The notes beneath the pieces are model-generated. The model searched no databases, was not told where the DNA came from, and was given only the letters and a program-made list of their open reading frames with translations. 64,000 nucleotides of DNA from a virus (Duplodnaviria > Caudoviricetes), in the IMG/VR virus record IMGVR_UViG_3300021387_000661, positions 32,001-96,000 of that record; one strand, written 5' to 3'. Made by a program: the position numbers and the translations under genes. Each line of letters begins with the position of its first letter. Positions within the stretch are counted from its first letter, which is position 1. This document shows positions 31,620 to 50,544 of the stretch, in pieces.

Positions 31620-31651
31620 TAAAAGAGAGGTTTTTATGACCTCTCTTTTTT
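31620..31651. terminator. Bidirectional terminator
   Basis: AAAAGAGAGGT...ACCTCTCTTTT. Confidence 0.8.
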
Positions 31652-32687
31652 ATTTCCTGTCTTTTACCAATCTCACACAGAGTTTACCATTAGTTGTATC
31701 TTGTGTTACACTATCATTTACATTATGATGATCATTCAATGGTGTGTGACAAGGTTTACCATCATTGAAAGTAAATATATTTGCAAATCTATTATTATTT
31801 GTATAAAGAGATGATGTCCAACAATAATAATAATCTTTATCTATGGGTTTATCACCAGCAGATGTATATATTAAACCTTTCTTGAAGAATACTAATTGAT
31901 GTGGAAATCCATCAAATACAAATCTATCATCATTTTCCCAGAATGAACCTTTTTTATAAATATCATCAAGTTCTGCAACTTCTTCAAGTGTTGGGAGTCT
32001 CCAACCACTGTTTTTAACAAGTTCAAATACTTCATCAAATGTAAAGTAACAGTCTCCATCTTTTAATGAAAGGTCATCATCTGCCCACAAAACAGATCCT
32101 CCCATATCAAGAGGTTTAAGAGATTTTATGTTTGTGAAATCATCTTCTTTCTTAACATCAGTTCCATTGCCTCTTCTCCTGATGTCATTCCAAACAGATT
32201 CAGAAACATAATTCTTGTCTTTTACAAGGAAAACAAAAAGTCTGTTTATCGACTTGTTGAAGTTTGTAACATCAAAAACATTTGAATTATTAAATCCATA
32301 TGCATATGCACTACTTGGGAATTTGGCATTGATTTCTTTTGTCCACATATGGAATCCATAACTTCCATTGGTCTTGAGTCTTAATTCATTTCCATCATAA
32401 AATTTAAGGTGCTTACATCCTTCATACCAGGCAATCCTGATATTCCAATGCAACTGGTTCACTTCATCAACAGTAGGAAGTCTCCAACCATTATTGTTAT
32501 AATCTTTTACATCATCAAAATGGAATTTCACCTCACCATCAATCTCAAGGTTGTCAATTGCCCAATAGATTGTTGTGTTTTCACCAAAGTCAACATAATC
32601 TGGATTGAAAGCATCCTCTTGCTTGATATCAGTACCTATACCCCTTCTTCTGATGTCACTCCAGACTGATTCACTTAATTTCTTCAT
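31650..32687 (-). CDS. Two-unit tagged protein with two Fib_succ_major/DUF1566-like (C-type-lectin-fold) domains
   Basis: Each half is tag + D(F/M)G...WA.D(N/D)L...GWRLPT..E...WT...(F/R)LVKD. Confidence 0.75.
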   Translation of the reverse strand: MKKLSESVWSDIRRRGIGTDIKQEDAFNPDYVDFGENTTIYWAIDNLEIDGEVKFHFDDVKDYNNNGWRLPTVDEVNQLHWNIRIAWYEGCKHLKFYDGNELRLKTNGSYGFHMWTKEINAKFPSSAYAYGFNNSNVFDVTNFNKSINRLFVFLVKDKNYVSESVWNDIRRRGNGTDVKKEDDFTNIKSLKPLDMGGSVLWADDDLSLKDGDCYFTFDEVFELVKNSGWRLPTLEEVAELDDIYKKGSFWENDDRFVFDGFPHQLVFFKKGLIYTSAGDKPIDKDYYYCWTSSLYTNNNRFANIFTFNDGKPCHTPLNDHHNVNDSVTQDTTNGKLCVRLVKDRK

Positions 32688-32689
32688 AG

Positions 32690-33475
32690 TTAATCTTTAA
32701 ATTTTATGAATGCTACACCTTCTGTACCACTTGGATTGTTTTCATAATCCAATTCAAATTCTTTCAAATGTACCCATCCAAGTTTTGTATATGTGTCTAT
32801 CAATTCTTTCCTTAAATCCTCATACCAGTTATCAAGCATAGGATATGTGATTATATGTATATCTTGAACCGTATCATAATCAACATCTTCTAATTCACAA
32901 GGAGGTATTGTTGGATTTCCATCATCATCATACCAAGTTCCATCATCTTCATAGAGTATTGCACCACCAACATCATAATCAGTACCAATCAAATCATATA
33001 TGGTATATTTTGCAAATTCAGACATATGATTGTCTTCAAAAATCTTCTTTGTGTATTTGACAAGAATATCCTGGATTTCAAGTTCAGAACTATACATCTG
33101 CTCAAATCTTCCATTTTTAATCAACTCATCAATATAATCATCCCTGTCTTTATCTATATAATCTCTCAATACATAGACATCATATTCATCTTCACCAATA
33201 TCCCATTTATCACAACCAAATACACCTGCTATTTCTGTATCACCCCAGATTATGGTTGGATTGTTTTTGGGTCTATTAAATGCAAAACACCTCCAGGGGT
33301 CAGAGTTTTCTTCTTCATAAACATCTCCAAGTCCCCAGAAATCTTTCATAAGTTGATATTTAACACCATCAATGACAAGGGTAATACCTTTGTCTTCCTG
33401 TTTTACATCATCGCCAAGACCTCTTCTTCTGATGTCACCCCATATAGATTCAGTTATGTTACTTAATTTTTTCAT
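32690..33475 (-). CDS. WxDIRRRG-tagged acidic protein
   Basis: Starts MKKLSNITESIWGDIRRRGLGDDVKQED. Confidence 0.8.
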   Translation of the reverse strand: MKKLSNITESIWGDIRRRGLGDDVKQEDKGITLVIDGVKYQLMKDFWGLGDVYEEENSDPWRCFAFNRPKNNPTIIWGDTEIAGVFGCDKWDIGEDEYDVYVLRDYIDKDRDDYIDELIKNGRFEQMYSSELEIQDILVKYTKKIFEDNHMSEFAKYTIYDLIGTDYDVGGAILYEDDGTWYDDDGNPTIPPCELEDVDYDTVQDIHIITYPMLDNWYEDLRKELIDTYTKLGWVHLKEFELDYENNPSGTEGVAFIKFKD

Positions 33476-33490
33476 ATACTTCTCAATTTT

Positions 33491-34123
33491 TCATATACTT
33501 ATTAATATTCCAAATGAGTCCACAATGTCATCAATTGGTTTGATTACCTTATAATCAAGTTCATTCTCTTTACAGAACTTCCAGAATCCACACTTCTCAA
33601 TGTCTGGGTCTTTTATCCTGTTCTCAATAAATGCCTGGATCATATCTTCCTTCTTTGCATTTCCCTTACCGGAGAGATTCTTCTTTCCCTCTGTTGGAGA
33701 AATGATAACCAAACAGTCTTCACCAAAATCCTCCAGTAATTTAATCCTTAAAAATGAGTTGAACAGTGCCAGGTCCAGGGTCGATGATGATATACTTCCA
33801 TAAGAGAAACCTTCAAGTCCTATAATGACCTCTTCATCACCAACCAATTCTACCAATCTGTTTGAGATTTTGTTTGCGATCATTTTCGCAGCCCTCATCT
33901 TTGTTCTCTGTTCTTCCCTGTAGTCCTTCTTATCAATCTCCCTGGTGTATGGGTTGAGTTCTATAATACCTGAAAGTTGTCTGTGATAGTTGAAAGTCTT
34001 GTTCTTACCAGTCTTCCAGTCCTTTCCATAATCATCAAAGAAAGAGATGAAAGAATATTCACCATCTTTATATATACACACTGCCGGCGAAATCAAACTA
34101 TAATCTATTCCTATTTTAATCAT
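33491..34123 (-). CDS. ruvC: RuvC-like Holliday junction resolvase
   Basis: IGIDYSL, LEGFSYG, KK..SGKGNAKKEDM, DDIVDS. Confidence 0.85.
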   Translation of the reverse strand: MIKIGIDYSLISPAVCIYKDGEYSFISFFDDYGKDWKTGKNKTFNYHRQLSGIIELNPYTREIDKKDYREEQRTKMRAAKMIANKISNRLVELVGDEEVIIGLEGFSYGSISSSTLDLALFNSFLRIKLLEDFGEDCLVIISPTEGKKNLSGKGNAKKEDMIQAFIENRIKDPDIEKCGFWKFCKENELDYKVIKPIDDIVDSFGILISI

Positions 34124-34620
34124 CTCAATGGTACTCCTTTTTCTCCATTAATTTCTGGTTCTTCCCTCAATACATACTCATTACTATATTTGTACACATA
34201 GAACTTCTTATTTTCAAGTCTGTATTTGATACTTCTTTTTTCCTGGATACTCATATCTGAATATTTTATAGGATTATAACTCTTGACACCATTGGCTTCC
34301 ATAGTATAGTTATCTGCACCATGTGATGTATTGTGGTAGATAGACAGATACCAGGCATCTTCATACTTGAAATGGATCCTTATTACATTTGGTTTCTCTA
34401 TATTCATCACTTTTTCAAGAGGCCATATGATGAGGTCATAAAGGAAATCATACAATCTCAATTCAGTTGATTTATACTTTGGTACAATATCAATAAGTAT
34501 GTTTCTCCACCAGTGTTCATAATCCTGTTCTGGTAAATCTTCCTGTTTGATGTCAGAACCTATACCTCTTTTTCTGATGTCATTCCAAACACTTTCAGTT
34601 ATACTACTCAGCTTCTTCAT
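34120..34620 (-). CDS. WxDIRKRG-tagged protein
   Basis: Starts MKKLSSITESVWNDIRKRGIGSDIKQED. Confidence 0.8.
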   Translation of the reverse strand: MKKLSSITESVWNDIRKRGIGSDIKQEDLPEQDYEHWWRNILIDIVPKYKSTELRLYDFLYDLIIWPLEKVMNIEKPNVIRIHFKYEDAWYLSIYHNTSHGADNYTMEANGVKSYNPIKYSDMSIQEKRSIKYRLENKKFYVYKYSNEYVLREEPEINGEKGVPLR

Positions 34621-35410
34621 CTACTGTAAACCAATTTTTAGTATATTCTTTATATTTCTTGAAGTTCTTCACTGTTGTTGCTGTGATAGGGATGCCAATG
34701 TTACAAGCATAATCATTGAATGACCAGACAATGAAAACAACATCATCTAATTCAGGGAATGTGTCAATCATACTTTCTTTATAATCAATTAAACTGGAGG
34801 CAGTACTTCCTTCGCCATATTTATCAGTATATTGTATTTCCCAATCATAAACATCTGATTCATCAATTAACTGTAAGATATAATCACTTTCATAATAAGA
34901 TATATTATCAAATTTTGTTTCAATAAAACCACCTTTATGTCTTGGTAGGTATGCAATGTCTCCACCAATCTCTTTTAGTTTGGTTGCAATACCTTTACAG
35001 ATTGATATATAGTCTTCTTCAGATACTCTGTCTTCAAAGTCATCCAGGTCAAAGTCTTTCATTTCATCATATGTCAAGAAATCTGCAATCAGGTCTGTAC
35101 CATGTCCTCCATCATATATAAGATATGTATAAGGTGCTTCAAATGCCCTGATGTTTTTCATTTCTTCTGGGGAATATGCCTTATCTCTGGTATTCAAGAT
35201 TGCAACCCTACATTCAACATAACTATCATTGTAATTAAGGATTTCTTTTATGAGTTCTTCATAATAAGAATCAGAAGCATTTTTCAGATAGATATCTACA
35301 TCAATACAAGTGTGAACTTTTTTACCATCCTCTTGTTTTACCTCAGTACCTATACCCCTTTTTCTGATGTCATTCCATACTGATTCTGTTATATTACTTA
35401 ATTTTTTCAT
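34604..35410 (-). CDS. WxDIRKRG-tagged acidic protein
   Basis: Starts MKKLSNITESVWNDIRKRGIGTEVKQED, late promoter 35432. Confidence 0.8.
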   Translation of the reverse strand: MKKLSNITESVWNDIRKRGIGTEVKQEDGKKVHTCIDVDIYLKNASDSYYEELIKEILNYNDSYVECRVAILNTRDKAYSPEEMKNIRAFEAPYTYLIYDGGHGTDLIADFLTYDEMKDFDLDDFEDRVSEEDYISICKGIATKLKEIGGDIAYLPRHKGGFIETKFDNISYYESDYILQLIDESDVYDWEIQYTDKYGEGSTASSLIDYKESMIDTFPELDDVVFIVWSFNDYACNIGIPITATTVKNFKKYKEYTKNWFTVDEEAE

Positions 35411-39999: not shown

Positions 40000-40007
40000 C
40001 ATAAATA
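40000..40007 (+). promoter_or_regulatory. gp55-type late promoter CATAAATA (representative of about 20 copies)
   Basis: Also + 7116, 8395, 42804, 47309, 48205 (TATAAATA), 48761, 60334 and - 2632, 3167, 10013, 10295, 19678, 22370, 24102, 25529, 29897, 35432, 37590, 53031, 55790. T4 late consensus is TATAAATA. Confidence 0.85.
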
Positions 40008-40012
40008 ATTGT

Positions 40013-42769
40013 ATGAGTACAACCAATGAATCAATATGGAATGACATCAGGAGAAGAGGTAATGGTTCTGATGTGAAGAAAGAAGATGATGTGAATCTTC
40101 TAGATATAGATGGACTCTATGATTATATCAAATCCAAATATGAGAAATATGTATTTGATTTAGATAAGGACACATTTGGTATATTAAATAAAAGGAATAT
40201 TGTTGTAGATATAATATCCAATGTGAGTCTGTTTACATCATATGATAAAAGTGGTAAATTGGATCACATTCTTTTATCTTGGACAAAAGTAAAGATAGGA
40301 ATGCCATTCTTTGATAAACTTTCAGAAAGGTTTAATGTACAATCACCAAATGTGTGTAGAAGAAGGATTACTGAAAAGGATGGTACCTGTACAAACCAGA
40401 CATATATAGATGTTATTGATTTCTTTTTGAAAAATATGGACAATATGTTAGTTAATGAATCAATATGGAATGACATTAGAAGAAGAGGTAATGGTGATGG
40501 CGTCAAGCAGGAAGAATTTACAGAAGAATTTATAGATAAAGTAAAATCGGATTTAATTTGTTTTACTATGTCAGTTGTAAATTATATAGAGAATTATGAA
40601 CTGACATTTGATGGTTTTTACAAGTATTTGGAAGAAATTGAGAATCCAGATGAAGTCAAAAAAATCATTTATTATGTAAAAACTCATAAAGATGAATGTG
40701 ATAAACTTTTAGAAAAAGACATCAAATTTGAAAATAAATTACTAGATGAAAAGATTAATGTCTATTTATTGAGATTTGTTGACAATATTGTATATGATGA
40801 AAAGTATCATAATACATTGTCAGATATAAAAAAGTTTGCATCTGAAATTTTTAAAGGACATAAAAGTTCATATGATTTCCATATAAACAAAAAACTGGTT
40901 TTTAAGGATAAGTCTGAATTGTTTAATGACTATATTGAAGATAAATGGGAAGACGGTTCTCTTAAACAAAAGATTGATGATTTGATTAAAAATGAAAATG
41001 ATGAAATATCCAAATATGGATTTGTAAAAGAACCAGGAAAAACCATATCTGAAACAGTTAATGATTGGTGGTATTCATTGGATGAAGACAAAAGAAATGA
41101 TTTGGGATGGGATGAATTTGGAGAAGATGCAGAAGGAGAATACTATTCAGATCACAATCCTGATTATAATGAATATACTGGTGAAGATTTTGAAGCAGAT
41201 GAGTGGTGGGATGATGCATATGGTATAAGAAGGGTTAAAATCTATTGTAGTGAACATTCAAAAACAAATGAGTCAGTTTGGGGTGACATCAGGAAACAAG
41301 GTCTTGGAGATACCTTAAAGAAAGAAGATGATCCATTTGTAGATAGAGATATAGATTCTTTATCCAAGTATGAGTTCTGTGATTATTTGAATTTTCATTA
41401 TGAACCACTTATGGGAAGGAGTATTCACACAAATGAACATACAAGAGAAGTGACAATACCTATATACATCCATCAAGGATATGCACATATGTATGCAACA
41501 TTTAATGATGATTCAAAACTTGTAGATATAAGTCTTCCTCTTACACAAAAAAATCCTCCAAGATTATATAATAGGATGTGCAAGAAATTTAATGTTATCC
41601 ACACAAGGCCACACTGGTCATATATTAAACCAATTGATGGTGATGAATTGACCAATACATTTTGTCTTGAAGTGATTGATTTTATTCTTGAGAATGTTAA
41701 TCATCCTTTACTGAAAAAGATTGTCTTACACAAGGTGAAAAAATTAAATGAATCAGTTTGGGGTGACATCAGAAAAAGAGGTAATGGTACTGATGTAAAG
41801 AAAGAAGATGAGATGACACAAGATGATTTGGAAGCACTTAATGATTTTATATTTGGATTTGCAACAAGAGTAGTATGGGATGGAGTGAGGGATTCTTTGA
41901 CAAATTTCTTAAAATATATTGATGAAAATCCTGAAGCACTTGACTGTGACATTGATAGGGTAAAGAAGTATGTTGAAGATAATTGGCATAAAAGTATATG
42001 TGATGATGTTGAAGCAGCAATAGAACAGGAAGATAAGGAAAAAGAAGAAGGTATGAATGAATCCATTTGGAATGACATCAGAAGAAGAGGTAATGGTACT
42101 GATGTAAGGAAAGAAGATGATATGACTTCTGATGATTATAGGAATTTGAAGGTAATATTGAAGATGTTTGGTCGTGAGGTCAGATTCTTTGGTAATCATA
42201 AAAACCAGAAATTCTTTCCAGTAAATGCCAAGAAATATGAAATTACTCTTGAAGACTGTTTGTATTTCATTGATGTACTTGTTGACGGTAAATTTACGGG
42301 TGCTGATTTTTCTAAACTGAAAAGATATATTGAAGTAAATTGGGAACGAGACCCTATGATTAAGAACATTATACAATGGACTGTTGATGGTAAAAATTCA
42401 AAAGAAATTGACCAAGAAATCAGGAATGCCTCAAAAAGTGATGAGTTTTGGGATTTGAATGAATGTGATGGTGTCCCTGGTGGATTAACACCTGCTGATG
42501 TAGGTGGAATGGGATCTGCATATTTTCCTGGACCAAATGGAGAACCTGGTTCCGGAGACCTTCCATTGCCAACTGGAATAGTTTATAAACAAGTTGCACC
42601 TTTTGATACATTTATCAAAATGAGAAGACCAAAAAAGAATAAAAAGAAAAAGTTCAGAAAGGAAGATGAACTATGTGTTCATAGTGAAAATCCACCAATA
42701 TATAGTCATGTTGATGATTTTAGAGATTATGTGGATAGGACATATAATAATATTGATAAAAGGAAATAA
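40013..42769 (+). CDS. 918-aa putative polyprotein with five WxDIR(R/K)xG tags
   Basis: Probable start ATG 40013 (MSTTNESIWND), just after late promoter 40000-40007. Tags at 40025, 40454, 41267, 41747 and 42056. Confidence 0.85.
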   Translation: MSTTNESIWNDIRRRGNGSDVKKEDDVNLLDIDGLYDYIKSKYEKYVFDLDKDTFGILNKRNIVVDIISNVSLFTSYDKSGKLDHILLSWTKVKIGMPFFDKLSERFNVQSPNVCRRRITEKDGTCTNQTYIDVIDFFLKNMDNMLVNESIWNDIRRRGNGDGVKQEEFTEEFIDKVKSDLICFTMSVVNYIENYELTFDGFYKYLEEIENPDEVKKIIYYVKTHKDECDKLLEKDIKFENKLLDEKINVYLLRFVDNIVYDEKYHNTLSDIKKFASEIFKGHKSSYDFHINKKLVFKDKSELFNDYIEDKWEDGSLKQKIDDLIKNENDEISKYGFVKEPGKTISETVNDWWYSLDEDKRNDLGWDEFGEDAEGEYYSDHNPDYNEYTGEDFEADEWWDDAYGIRRVKIYCSEHSKTNESVWGDIRKQGLGDTLKKEDDPFVDRDIDSLSKYEFCDYLNFHYEPLMGRSIHTNEHTREVTIPIYIHQGYAHMYATFNDDSKLVDISLPLTQKNPPRLYNRMCKKFNVIHTRPHWSYIKPIDGDELTNTFCLEVIDFILENVNHPLLKKIVLHKVKKLNESVWGDIRKRGNGTDVKKEDEMTQDDLEALNDFIFGFATRVVWDGVRDSLTNFLKYIDENPEALDCDIDRVKKYVEDNWHKSICDDVEAAIEQEDKEKEEGMNESIWNDIRRRGNGTDVRKEDDMTSDDYRNLKVILKMFGREVRFFGNHKNQKFFPVNAKKYEITLEDCLYFIDVLVDGKFTGADFSKLKRYIEVNWERDPMIKNIIQWTVDGKNSKEIDQEIRNASKSDEFWDLNECDGVPGGLTPADVGGMGSAYFPGPNGEPGSGDLPLPTGIVYKQVAPFDTFIKMRRPKKNKKKKFRKEDELCVHSENPPIYSHVDDFRDYVDRTYNNIDKRK
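40025..42121 (+). repeat. Five dispersed ~66-bp repeats encoding NES(I/V)W(N/G)DIR(R/K)xG.G...K(K/Q)E(D/E)
   Basis: Copies at 40025-40090, 40454-40519, 41267-41332, 41747-41812, 42056-42121. Confidence 0.92.
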
Positions 42770-48194: not shown

Positions 48195-48232
48195 TGAATA
48201 ATTTTATAAATAAATAAAATAATAGTTAAAGT

Positions 48233-48709
48233 ATGGCATACATTAAGAAATTTAGTGAATTTATAAAAGAATCCATAGATTTTGATTCTTTTGAAGATAT
48301 CAATAGTTTAAGTATTGATGATATTTGTGATTATCTGATAAATGTGTATCCTAAATATCAGAATCCTAATAATCGCCATTATCAATATCCAACAAAAGAT
48401 ATTATTAAACCAAGTGATGATGGAATTTCTATGCAGATTGTAACAAATGTTGACTTTATTATAAGTAATACAAGAGGTCAATATGAATGTTTTTTATATT
48501 TTGATAAAGGATTTCCTGAAGAAAAGAAAAGAGGTTATTTTGATGTAATTACTGATATATGTTCTTTAGAAAAAGATAATGTTGAAGGATTTGAATGTAT
48601 TAAAGTAAGTCCTCTTGATAGTAAAGTTCTCACTCTTGATTTTTGTGTTAATGTTATAGATAGAATTAGTGAAAGTGACCCTGATAATGCATATTATATA
48701 AAGGCATAA
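48233..48709 (+). CDS. Putative head-internal protein, paralog of polyprotein units 1 and 3
   Basis: MAYIKKFSEFIKE^S; DINSLSIDDICDYL...TLDFCVNVID matches DIDSLSKYEFCDYL...TNTFCLEVID. Confidence 0.7.
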   Translation: MAYIKKFSEFIKESIDFDSFEDINSLSIDDICDYLINVYPKYQNPNNRHYQYPTKDIIKPSDDGISMQIVTNVDFIISNTRGQYECFLYFDKGFPEEKKRGYFDVITDICSLEKDNVEGFECIKVSPLDSKVLTLDFCVNVIDRISESDPDNAYYIKA

Positions 48710-48795: not shown

Positions 48796-50544
48796 ATGAG
48801 ATATACAAGTAAGGGATATTTCCCCCTTAATGAGAGTAAAAAAGCAAAGGACATCCAAGTTGTCTTTTTGTCATCCAGGGCAGAGAAGACTACAAAGAGT
48901 TCCAATTCAATGTTTTTCTTTGAAGAAGCAGCCAAGAAGGCAGGATTGAAATTGATTACCATTGATCCATCATCATCTACAATTTCAAAAGGTACTGGTG
49001 ATGATTATAATGTAGTTGAGGAAAATGGTGATGCAAAGAAGAATTTTACACTCAACCCAACCAATACGATTATCGTACCTCGTCGTACTGTTTTGAAGAA
49101 CATTGAATCAAGAGATTTCCTTACAGAACTACAGAATGATGGTTTCTTTGTATTGAACACATTGGATGCAATTGATAACTGTGAGGATAAGTTCATAACT
49201 TATAAGAAGTTGAAAGCATATGGTGTTCCAACTCCAAAGACAACTGTTGTTACCAGTTCATCAATGAATAAACTTCAGGAGAAGGTTGATGCAATTGGAA
49301 GTAATTTTCCTATCATTATCAAGATTACAAAGGGAACACAGGGTATTGGTGTTGCACAGATTGACTCAATGATTTCACTTAAGTCTGTCCTCCAGGCCAT
49401 CTTTGCACTTGTACCAAAGGCAGATATTCTTCTTCAGGAGAAAATCAATTCTGATTATGACCTTCGTATCCATGTTCTTTATAAGGGATTTGAAAGGATG
49501 ACACCAGGTATTGATAATTTTGAGATTATTGGATGTATGCAGAGAAATCAGCTTGCTGGTGATTTCAGAAGTAATTATTCTCTTGGTTCAACAGCAGAAA
49601 AAGGACACCTTACACCAGAACAGGAGAAGATTGCAAAGATGGCAGCAAAAGCAACTGGATGTAGATGGTGTGGTGTTGACCTTATTATGGACAGTAGGAC
49701 AAAGGCATCTTATGTTATTGAGGTTAATTCATCACCAGGTACAAAGGGTATTACAACTGCTGCCGGTGATGATGTTGTTGGAATATTGATGGATATGTTC
49801 AAGGACTTCAAATATACAAAGTATGATTCAGATCAGATTGGTAGGTATGAGACTGTTACATTCAAGAATCTTGATGATGGTGTTGATGCTGCTATGAAAT
49901 TTGATGATAGTAAGACATTCACAGAATTGGAATGTAGTTCGGTAAATGCAACTGATGATGATGTTACCTTCTTGTTCAATGGAGTTACTTATAAGGCAGA
50001 ACTTTCAGGTATGAGAAAGGGAAATCCTATGATTGAGTTAAACATTAAGTTCAATGGAACTATCTATAAAAATGAGTTGGTTGTATTGAAGACAGTCAAT
50101 GACAATATTAATAAAAATGTTGCTGTTGGTGGTAGTAAGTTTCTTCATAGAATTTCTGACAAGGCTGTTGTTGTAGAGAATTCATTCATCTTAACAGATA
50201 ACACAACTGGATTTGAAGTTCCAGTACAAAAACTTGATGAGGGTCTTGAAGTTAAGGAAAAGAAAGGTGATGAATTACTTGATTTAAAGGGATTGAAGAA
50301 ATTGTTCACAAGATTTATCAATGGTAGTCAGAATGTTTATGAATATGAAGGTTGGAAGATTAAGAGTGATGATGGTAGAGACAACTGGACATTAAAATTC
50401 AGAGGTAATGAAATAGTAGAGTGTAAGGAAAACTATAGTACATTCATTAGTGATTATTTGACTTTTGAGAAAGCATGTAAGGTTGCTGGAGTCATTGAAT
50501 CATTCTATGGACATGAAGTTGATTTATCAAAATACAATAAATAA
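48796..50544 (+). CDS. rimK: RimK-family ATP-grasp ligase fused to a degenerate retropepsin-like domain and a C-terminal domain
   Basis: DKF.T...L...GVPTPKT, PIIIK..GTQGIGV, LLQEKI, DLR, DFRSNYSLG, GVDL, IEVNSSPG. Confidence 0.88.
   Translation: MRYTSKGYFPLNESKKAKDIQVVFLSSRAEKTTKSSNSMFFFEEAAKKAGLKLITIDPSSSTISKGTGDDYNVVEENGDAKKNFTLNPTNTIIVPRRTVLKNIESRDFLTELQNDGFFVLNTLDAIDNCEDKFITYKKLKAYGVPTPKTTVVTSSSMNKLQEKVDAIGSNFPIIIKITKGTQGIGVAQIDSMISLKSVLQAIFALVPKADILLQEKINSDYDLRIHVLYKGFERMTPGIDNFEIIGCMQRNQLAGDFRSNYSLGSTAEKGHLTPEQEKIAKMAAKATGCRWCGVDLIMDSRTKASYVIEVNSSPGTKGITTAAGDDVVGILMDMFKDFKYTKYDSDQIGRYETVTFKNLDDGVDAAMKFDDSKTFTELECSSVNATDDDVTFLFNGVTYKAELSGMRKGNPMIELNIKFNGTIYKNELVVLKTVNDNINKNVAVGGSKFLHRISDKAVVVENSFILTDNTTGFEVPVQKLDEGLEVKEKKGDELLDLKGLKKLFTRFINGSQNVYEYEGWKIKSDDGRDNWTLKFRGNEIVECKENYSTFISDYLTFEKACKVAGVIESFYGHEVDLSKYNK

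Follow-up and report, generated by a model that had tools for sequence, protein, structure and literature searches.

A tagged polyprotein as a candidate precursor of internal head proteins in a T4-related giant phage

The window analysed here, a stretch of 64,000 nucleotides (bases 32001-96000) from a single virus contig of 344,746 bp with a G+C content of about 33% (IMG/VR record IMGVR_UViG_3300021387_000661), carries a gene for a 918-residue protein in which a 22-residue tag of the form S-[IV]-W-[NG]-D-I-[RK]-[RKQ]-x-G-x-G-x-[DG]-x-[KR]-[KQ]-E-[DE] is present in five copies. The tags mark off a short leader, five units and a C-terminal tail (Table 1), and we refer to the product as the polyprotein. 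An earlier note on this DNA had placed the tags, by the N of the N-E that precedes each of them, at 40025, 40454, 41267, 41747 and 42056, and had listed TNE, VNE, TNE, LNE and MNE as the residues in front of them; all five were found at these positions and behind these residues. The note had also seen a further LNE/C site near 42460 (a slash marks the predicted cut), which we located at residues 815-818, with the Cys codon starting at 42464 and a tail of 101 residues following it. As read from the sequence, all six joints fit a cutting motif composed of a hydrophobic residue or Thr, any residue and Glu. A hidden Markov model (HMM) of the tag, run against the 1532 open reading frames (ORFs) of the genome, gave 40-50 bits for each copy in the polyprotein (E values from 1e-12 to 1e-14) and 7 bits for the next-best match, which is not a tag; a chance origin of the tags is thus excluded.

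No Pfam or PHROG family matched the polyprotein at E values up to 0.01, and no sequence homology to the T4 internal proteins (IPs) or Alt emerged. At the same threshold Pfam gave no match to inner-head paralogue family A of phages phiKZ and SPN3US (PF12699). A tblastn search of 50,697 deposited phage records found no match to the polyprotein. The Pfam and PHROG scans detected no protease family in the polyprotein either, the fold searches described below covering only some of its domains.

Table 1. Positions of the polyprotein gene, its parts and associated features (window coordinates unless stated otherwise)
Feature	Position	Strand	Remarks
Polyprotein gene	40013..42769	+	918 residues, 108.2 kDa; stop codon included, no internal stop
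CATAAATA box	40000..40007	+	resembles the T4 late promoter TATAAATA; 5 nucleotides before ATG
Leader MSTTNE	40013..40030	+	six residues; ends in the first T-N-E/S joint
Unit 1	40031..40459	+	residues 7-149, 16.8 kDa; family A alpha/beta domain; ends VNE
Unit 1 tag	40031-40096	+	tag HMM
Unit 2	40460..41272	+	residues 150-420, 32.6 kDa; larger, mostly helical, includes family B module; ends TNE
Unit 2 tag	40460-40525	+	
Unit 3	41273..41752	+	residues 421-580, 18.9 kDa; family A domain; ends LNE
Unit 3 tag	41273-41338	+	
Unit 4	41753..42061	+	residues 581-683, 12.0 kDa; family B helical domain; ends MNE
Unit 4 tag	41753-41818	+	
Unit 5	42062..42463	+	residues 684-817, 16.1 kDa; family B helical domain; ends LNE
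Unit 5 tag	42062-42127	+	
Tail	42464..42766	+	residues 818-918, 11.3 kDa, isoelectric point 8.9
Free family A paralogue	48233..48709	+	HMM positions 1-119; leader MAYIKKFSEFIKE/S; no tag
TATAAATA box upstream of the free paralogue	48205-48212		
Tagged gene, two tags	31650-32687	-	leader MKKLSE
Tagged gene	32690-33475	-	leader MKKLS[NS]ITE
Tagged gene	34120-34620	-	leader MKKLS[NS]ITE
Tagged gene	34604-35410	-	leader MKKLS[NS]ITE
Four leaderless tagged small genes	genome about 275776, 296495, 301540, 301805		outside the window
gp21-type protease gene	L004:10233-12200 = genome 112232-114199		outside the window

Profile-profile comparison of the units (hhalign), performed after removal of the tags, bore out the relationships that had been claimed from the letters. 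Units 1 and 3, described as paralogous, matched each other with an E value of 1e-21 and belong to a family (here family A) with 12 tagged members in this genome; the free-standing paralogue said to start at 48233 is indeed a full-length match to the family A HMM (E 1.7e-5 against the ORFs of the genome). Units 2, 4 and 5, for which a common helical pattern had been noticed, share a helical module (family B; E 9e-15 for units 4 and 5, 5e-15 for units 4 and 2, and 2e-7 for units 5 and 2), which occupies the middle of unit 2. No similarity was detected by the same comparison in the control pairs, namely units 1 and 4, units 3 and 5, and the tail and unit 5.

An alignment of the full-length protein proved unusable for structure prediction because the aligner had stacked tag-bearing and short fragments on the wrong unit, as revealed by a check of alignment depth. 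AlphaFold2 was run on two halves: residues 1-425, from 86 collinear alignment rows, and residues 415-918, from 100 such rows. The model of the N-terminal half had a mean predicted local distance difference test (pLDDT) value of 84 and a predicted template modelling (pTM) score of 0.57, confidence falling below 50 solely at residues 1-22, 149-162 and 420-425. For the C-terminal half the values were lower (mean pLDDT 70, pTM 0.37), with low confidence at model residues 1-9, 163-182 and 267-278, which correspond to joints and tags, and over most of the tail, which is disordered in the model except for its last helix. Within the first three units, the domains themselves reached pLDDT values of 86-95 (unit 1), 84-98 (unit 2) and 84-93 (unit 3), the tag of unit 1 and residues 149-162 at the start of unit 2 remaining below 50. 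In the models each tag takes the form of a short helix (S-I-W-x-D-I-R-R-R) with a loop after it, both lying apart from the folded domains. The two models thus present the arrangement that the earlier note had anticipated, with five separate domains predicted confidently and confidence dropping at the NE/S joints and the tags.

Fold searches with these models gave no convincing match. Foldseek found no match in the PDB at E values up to 0.001 for either half, and a fold search of the ESM Atlas with unit 2 gave no usable match. With VIA-align, the top match of both family A units was the C-terminal domain of T4 MotA (unit 1, Z 7.9 and root-mean-square deviation 2.7 over 96 residues; unit 3, Z 6.2 and 3.3 over 100 residues). 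These Z scores for the MotA 'double-wing' (residues 107-211) fall where VIA-align calls unrelated folds common, and the corresponding Foldseek E value is 1.1; the resemblance of family A to this DNA-binding domain, seen in two independent models, is weak and serves as a lead only.

The tail opens with a conserved Cys, which is followed by a Gly/Pro-rich copy of the N-terminal arm of the capsid protein (GGMGSAYFPG...GSGD); beyond this copy it is rich in Lys and closes with a conserved helix at the C-terminus. In BLASTP, its first 60 residues aligned with residues 49-109 of the gp23-like major capsid protein of the same phage (41% identity over 61 residues, E 1e-7 for this pair of sequences); the alignment opens at the L-N-E site and spans GGMG[SA]AYFPG and GSGD. 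The capsid proteins of three relatives were matched by the same query, and no ORF of the genome other than the tail and the capsid protein carries motifs of the GGMG/GSGD type. As to PFDTFIK, which the earlier note had taken for a motif resembling the T4 capsid targeting sequence (CTS), it lies inside the arm-like segment and no Glu site follows it. Of the interpretation offered there, the independence of the units as modules stands, given the predicted structures, their varying order and the free paralogue, whereas the tail as a CTS-bearing piece does not. There is a hint that tail and capsid arm co-vary, in that their variants pair as AAYF/AAYF, DMFF/DIML and DIYF/NIVL. A complex prediction with capsid residues 96-575 and the tail, for which controls were not run, scored 0.00 and speaks neither for nor against binding.

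In distant relatives whose capsid proteins are 75% and 49% identical to that of this phage, no tag was found anywhere, and two such tagless phages keep the tail. In relative G001 it is a free-standing gene of 104 residues with the leader MEDIEKNINE/C, and another distant relative has a 213-residue gene made of a unit-5-like module plus the tail; both genes adjoin a UvsX-like gene. Because the tail persists where tags are absent, it appears to be the older, conserved part of the system, to which tagged cargo was added in one sub-clade. As a side observation, the UvsX/RecA-like gene beside the tail gene of relative G004 (L033:221-1186, minus strand) seems to contain an intein-like interruption (...GGCLVGGSKVIMSNGELKNIEDIRVGDKV...), and its G001 orthologue (L032:199-1419) is uninterrupted.

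We collected relatives of the polyprotein from public data in an exhaustive profile-free search, which returned 424 protein clusters (50% identity) at E values up to 0.001; a second search gave 130 related proteins of 504-1607 residues, many of them on contigs of 250-416 kb. None of the related proteins carries a name. Joints were counted over 245 of these proteins, which hold 729 tags. Glu occupies P1 in 725 cases, and Ser occupies P1' in 725; one of I, V, T, M and L stands at P3 in 98%, and 59% have Asn at P2. The joint before the tail reads [ILVMT]-x-E/C in about 119 of 121 proteins. Unit number and order, which the earlier note had suggested comparing across related phages, vary freely, with 0-9 tags per protein and chains of 2-9 units, and some relatives have GNAT acetyltransferase, DUF285 or leucine-rich repeat (LRR) modules inserted. 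About half of the proteins (124/245) end in the tail, mostly with a unit-5-like module just before it. Two other possibilities were discarded: further cleavage where the tag ends (VKKE/D), P3 being Lys or Arg there, and separate internal translation starts for each unit, since no consistent start codons are found at the joints.

The tag is not restricted to the polyprotein. The genome holds 27 copies in 16 genes, which comprise the five-tag polyprotein gene, two genes with three tags, three with two and ten with one. In 23 of the 27 cases the tag is preceded by [I/L/V/M/T]-x-E, which belongs to an internal joint or closes a short leader (MKKLSNITE, MIPDFKTYIxE or MSTTNE), so that Glu and the hydrophobic P3 are there whenever anything precedes the tag. 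The remaining four tags begin straight after the initiator Met (M-S-[IV]-W), with no leader. These leaderless tags constitute a natural control, indicating that the tag itself does not need the Glu or the hydrophobic P3. They also suggest a common outcome: since either a cut after Glu or ordinary removal of Met before Ser would expose the same Ser, the tag would always end up at an N-terminus.

A protease that could make such cuts is encoded in the same genome. The head module, outside the window, contains genes for a sheath protein, a gp20-like portal, a gp21-type protease and the gp23-like major capsid protein. The protease, of 655 residues, has an N-terminal Peptidase_S77 domain (PF03420, 37 bits, above the cut-off), also matches the PHROG 207 head maturation protease (E 1.7e-39), and lies beside the T4-like portal and the capsid protein gene. 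The T4 protease gp21 cleaves behind the Glu of I/L-x-E. Its phiKZ and SPN3US homologues have S/A/G-x-E as their site (PMC5694885). The capsid protein of the present phage (575 residues) carries ...KQSLNE/SALGY..., a site 52 residues from its start, and the predicted cut would leave an N-terminal arm of 52 residues before the conserved IALDLVPVVPM block, compared with 38 in T4 gp23*. A VNE/S site (...RVNE/SYGF) is found just after the protease domain as well. Because the same motif stands at these two places, the joints of the polyprotein copy the sites at which the protease is expected to act. The C-terminal part of the protease carries about nine tandem 14-residue HQDYLAEKMNQMI-like repeats (HQDY-[LIV]-[AV]-E); by analogy with T4 gp22, this scaffold-like region could be chopped by the protein's own protease domain. 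Among the sheath, portal and capsid genes there are also homing-endonuclease-like genes (PHROG 3339, HNH; L004:3473-5116 and L004:14703-16484).

The box upstream of the polyprotein gene gives some indication of the time of expression. Genome-wide, [CT]ATAAATA occurs within 60 nucleotides upstream of 62 of 395 genes in the sense orientation versus 23 in the antisense orientation, and the genes behind it include those of the sheath, the portal and the protease as well as genes that head other tagged clusters. Most tagged genes sit downstream of such late-type boxes; among the four leaderless ones, a single gene does. The box lends weak support to late expression of the polyprotein. In several cases it ends 4-6 nucleotides before the ATG, which suggests leaderless or near-leaderless late mRNAs.

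The tag changes quickly between phages and hardly at all within them. Phages with capsid proteins 91-92% identical bear clearly different tags (SAWGDMMRRGSGE.IR.ED and SVWADIHKRSNGEQVRKED, versus SIWNDIRRRGNGTDVKKED here), and the copies within each phage are nearly uniform. Across the variants nothing is constant but S1, W3, the hydrophobic nature of position 6, G12, K/R16, E18 and D19. Identical tag residues use the same codon in 62% of cases genome-wide and in 80% within the polyprotein ORF, compared with 49% expected from codon usage, which makes some gene conversion among the copies likely. Since the copies nevertheless differ at synonymous sites, we attribute maintenance of the tag to selection on the peptide; for the same reason a role of the tags as DNA recombination anchors alone was rejected. 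Uniformity within a phage and divergence between phages is the pattern that would be expected of a peptide binding one putative, phage-specific partner. A near relative, G009 (IMGVR_UViG_3300028888_000043, 411.6 kb), carries the tag 29 times, distributed over four or five clusters, and has a polyprotein ORF of about 1030 residues (stop to stop) with six tags; with 29 tags against 27 here, the size of the system is conserved and the tag sequence is not.

What the analysis shows is the anatomy of the gene, the statistics of its joint motif, a protease in the same genome, units that are modular and a tail that mimics the capsid protein; from these we infer packaging, cutting, the roles of tag and tail, and delivery to the host. 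In our judgement the gene is probably the precursor of internal head (cargo) proteins in a T4-related giant phage, made late and cut in the prohead. The chain would enter the assembling prohead whole, and the gp21-type protease would there cut after each [I/L/V/M/T]-x-Glu, giving five folded proteins of 12-33 kDa, each with its tag first, and an 11-kDa basic tail starting with Cys. Fixed stoichiometry would follow if the chain were cut only inside the head. The tail would probably link the uncut chain to the shell or to the apparatus through which the capsid protein passes, and cargo units may have been joined to the N-terminus of the tail one cassette at a time. The tag would be a common address kept on each mature piece and would most likely bind a single phage-specific partner, which would control whether the piece stays in the head or leaves it. 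Since the tag is strictly present on every unit, each mature piece appears to need it; it may hold a partner in the core or on the DNA, order the exit of the pieces, or act in the host. A more specific version, which we offer tentatively and with some doubt, is that the 22-residue address exposed by the protease co-evolves with one head receptor that would serve about 27 modules per genome, in chains of up to nine units, with the capsid-arm mimic of the tail as the anchor. A system of this kind would amount to a natural, programmable loading of fixed effector ratios into a capsid for delivery to the host.

Several observations weigh against a precursor of head cargo. We found no cultured relative and no virion proteome. 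The polyprotein gene lies among recombination and DNA-metabolism genes, away from the head module. Thr at P3, found at 17% of the joints and at two of the five here, falls outside the classical I/L-x-E consensus of T4. The presumed capsid, protease and tail sites carry no tag, which means that cutting probably does not depend on it, and the four leaderless tagged proteins, which may never meet the head protease, could act in the cytoplasm without entering the head. One signal per chain could suffice for head entry, in which case the conservation of all five tags would call for another reason. Finally, the T4 CTS, a propeptide of 10-20 residues at the N-terminus, is cut off, whereas the 22-residue element here is C-terminal of the predicted cut and would be retained.

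These difficulties have to be set against those of the alternatives. An uncut multidomain protein of the 'polyvalent' type, in which the tags would be linkers or binding motifs between domains and the Glu a part of the motif, seems to us quite unlikely. Four tags that begin at Met lack the Glu, which is hence no part of the tag's function, and P3 is hydrophobic or Thr at nearly all joints despite unrelated upstream domains; moreover, the short N-terminal leaders always finish in the joint motif, and the capsid protein has this motif at its expected maturation site. It is true that cleavage is here a prediction, that the GNAT, DUF285 and LRR domains of some relatives are typical of polyvalent proteins, and that injection is known for large multidomain phage proteins (Iyer et al. 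2017, cited in PMC7824862). An error of assembly, by which the repeated tag DNA would have fused separate genes into a false ORF, is scarcely credible. The tags are 66-nucleotide repeats of high DNA similarity and such repeats can confuse assemblers, but the identical 918-residue protein is present in separate public assemblies from different sources, more than 100 distinct multi-unit relatives exist, many of them on the long contigs mentioned above, and the copies within the ORF differ in their DNA.

The other two explanations accept the cutting and place the tag or the protease elsewhere. Retention of the tag on every unit after the predicted cut would equally suit a tag that acts after delivery, or in the cytoplasm, by binding a host target or an early phage hub protein. 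Four leaderless tagged genes need no head protease, the fast divergence of the tag between close relatives could track different hosts, and the wider clade conserves the tail and not the tag. Host targets alone, however, would not explain the strict uniformity of some 27 copies per genome, most tagged genes lie behind late-type boxes, and the T4 precedent ties a shared short sequence to head targeting (PMC3012670); we regard this explanation as unlikely. Processing outside the head by a host protease or another phage protease, with intracellular products that are never packaged, would agree with the DNA-metabolism genes nearby, and nothing places the polyprotein in the virion. The joint motif nevertheless fits the specificity of the head-protease family and the capsid site, other proteases not having been searched systematically, the tail copies the capsid N-terminal arm, and a late-type promoter box is present, which together make processing of this kind very unlikely.

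Among known systems, the proposed precursor of head cargo comes closest to the internal proteins of T4, where diverse proteins share one short targeting sequence and are trimmed by gp21 (PMC3012670, PMC5694885). As with IPI, IPII, IPIII and Alt, diverse small cargos carry one short conserved sequence in a phage that encodes a gp21-type protease, Glu at P1 and a hydrophobic P3 mark the predicted cut, and the genes are scattered outside the head module. In length and character, short leaders such as MIPDFKTYIxE and MAYIKKFSEFIKE are similar to the T4 CTS, whereas the leader of the polyprotein has only six residues; there is no sequence similarity to the T4 IPs or CTS, and several cargos are here strung in one chain. 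We know of no T4 counterpart to a chain that ends in a look-alike of the capsid N-terminal arm. Compared with the gp23-like capsid protein of its own phage, the tail shares the L-N-E site, GGMGxAYFPG and GSGD; it differs in its first residue, which is Cys and not the Ser of the capsid protein, and in that a Lys-rich stretch and a short helix follow the arm in place of an HK97-fold body.

The internal head paralogues of phiKZ and SPN3US are likewise processed by a homologous protease after x-x-Glu, and their N-termini can be identical (PMC5694885). These are also giant phages with expanded families of ejection or inner-body proteins; however, their proteins are single units that lose propeptides of more than 100 residues at an A/S/G-x-E motif, and the head module of the present phage is T4-like. 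Polyvalent proteins resemble the polyprotein in combining several independent modules in one long chain that is thought to travel with the DNA, and GNAT modules occur in some of them (PMC7824862) as in some relatives here. They have no repeated tag, whereas the joints here fit a head protease, and Pfam and PHROG revealed no known enzyme domain in the polyprotein. In the 2017 work of Iyer et al., polyvalent proteins are reportedly thought to be cut by protease domains embedded in them. Our literature searches found no published account of such a tag, of the polyprotein or of capsid-arm mimicry by a tail, and the Jug-phage and bS21-phage papers make no mention of the tag or polyprotein.

If the proposed course of events is correct, it would extend the T4 idea of one address for many cargos, with an address that, unlike that of T4, stays on the mature protein, and with cut polyproteins that fix ratios and let modules shuffle at standard joints. 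The tag would then mark many candidate injected effectors in a clade of uncultured huge phages (about 27 tags in this genome, 424 clusters overall). Mimicry of the capsid arm by the tail points to a means by which a virus may get passengers into its shell. Foreign proteins are already loaded into T4 heads with short packaging tags, and another tag system of a different kind would have practical value.

One further feature of the neighbourhood may be recorded. A gene for a RimK-like ATP-grasp protein (PF08443, E 1e-29) lies at 48796-50544 on the plus strand, 6 kb downstream of the polyprotein gene, and in relative G004 an ATP-grasp-like gene directly follows the tail gene (L033:2044-3330), which indicates that this neighbourhood is conserved.

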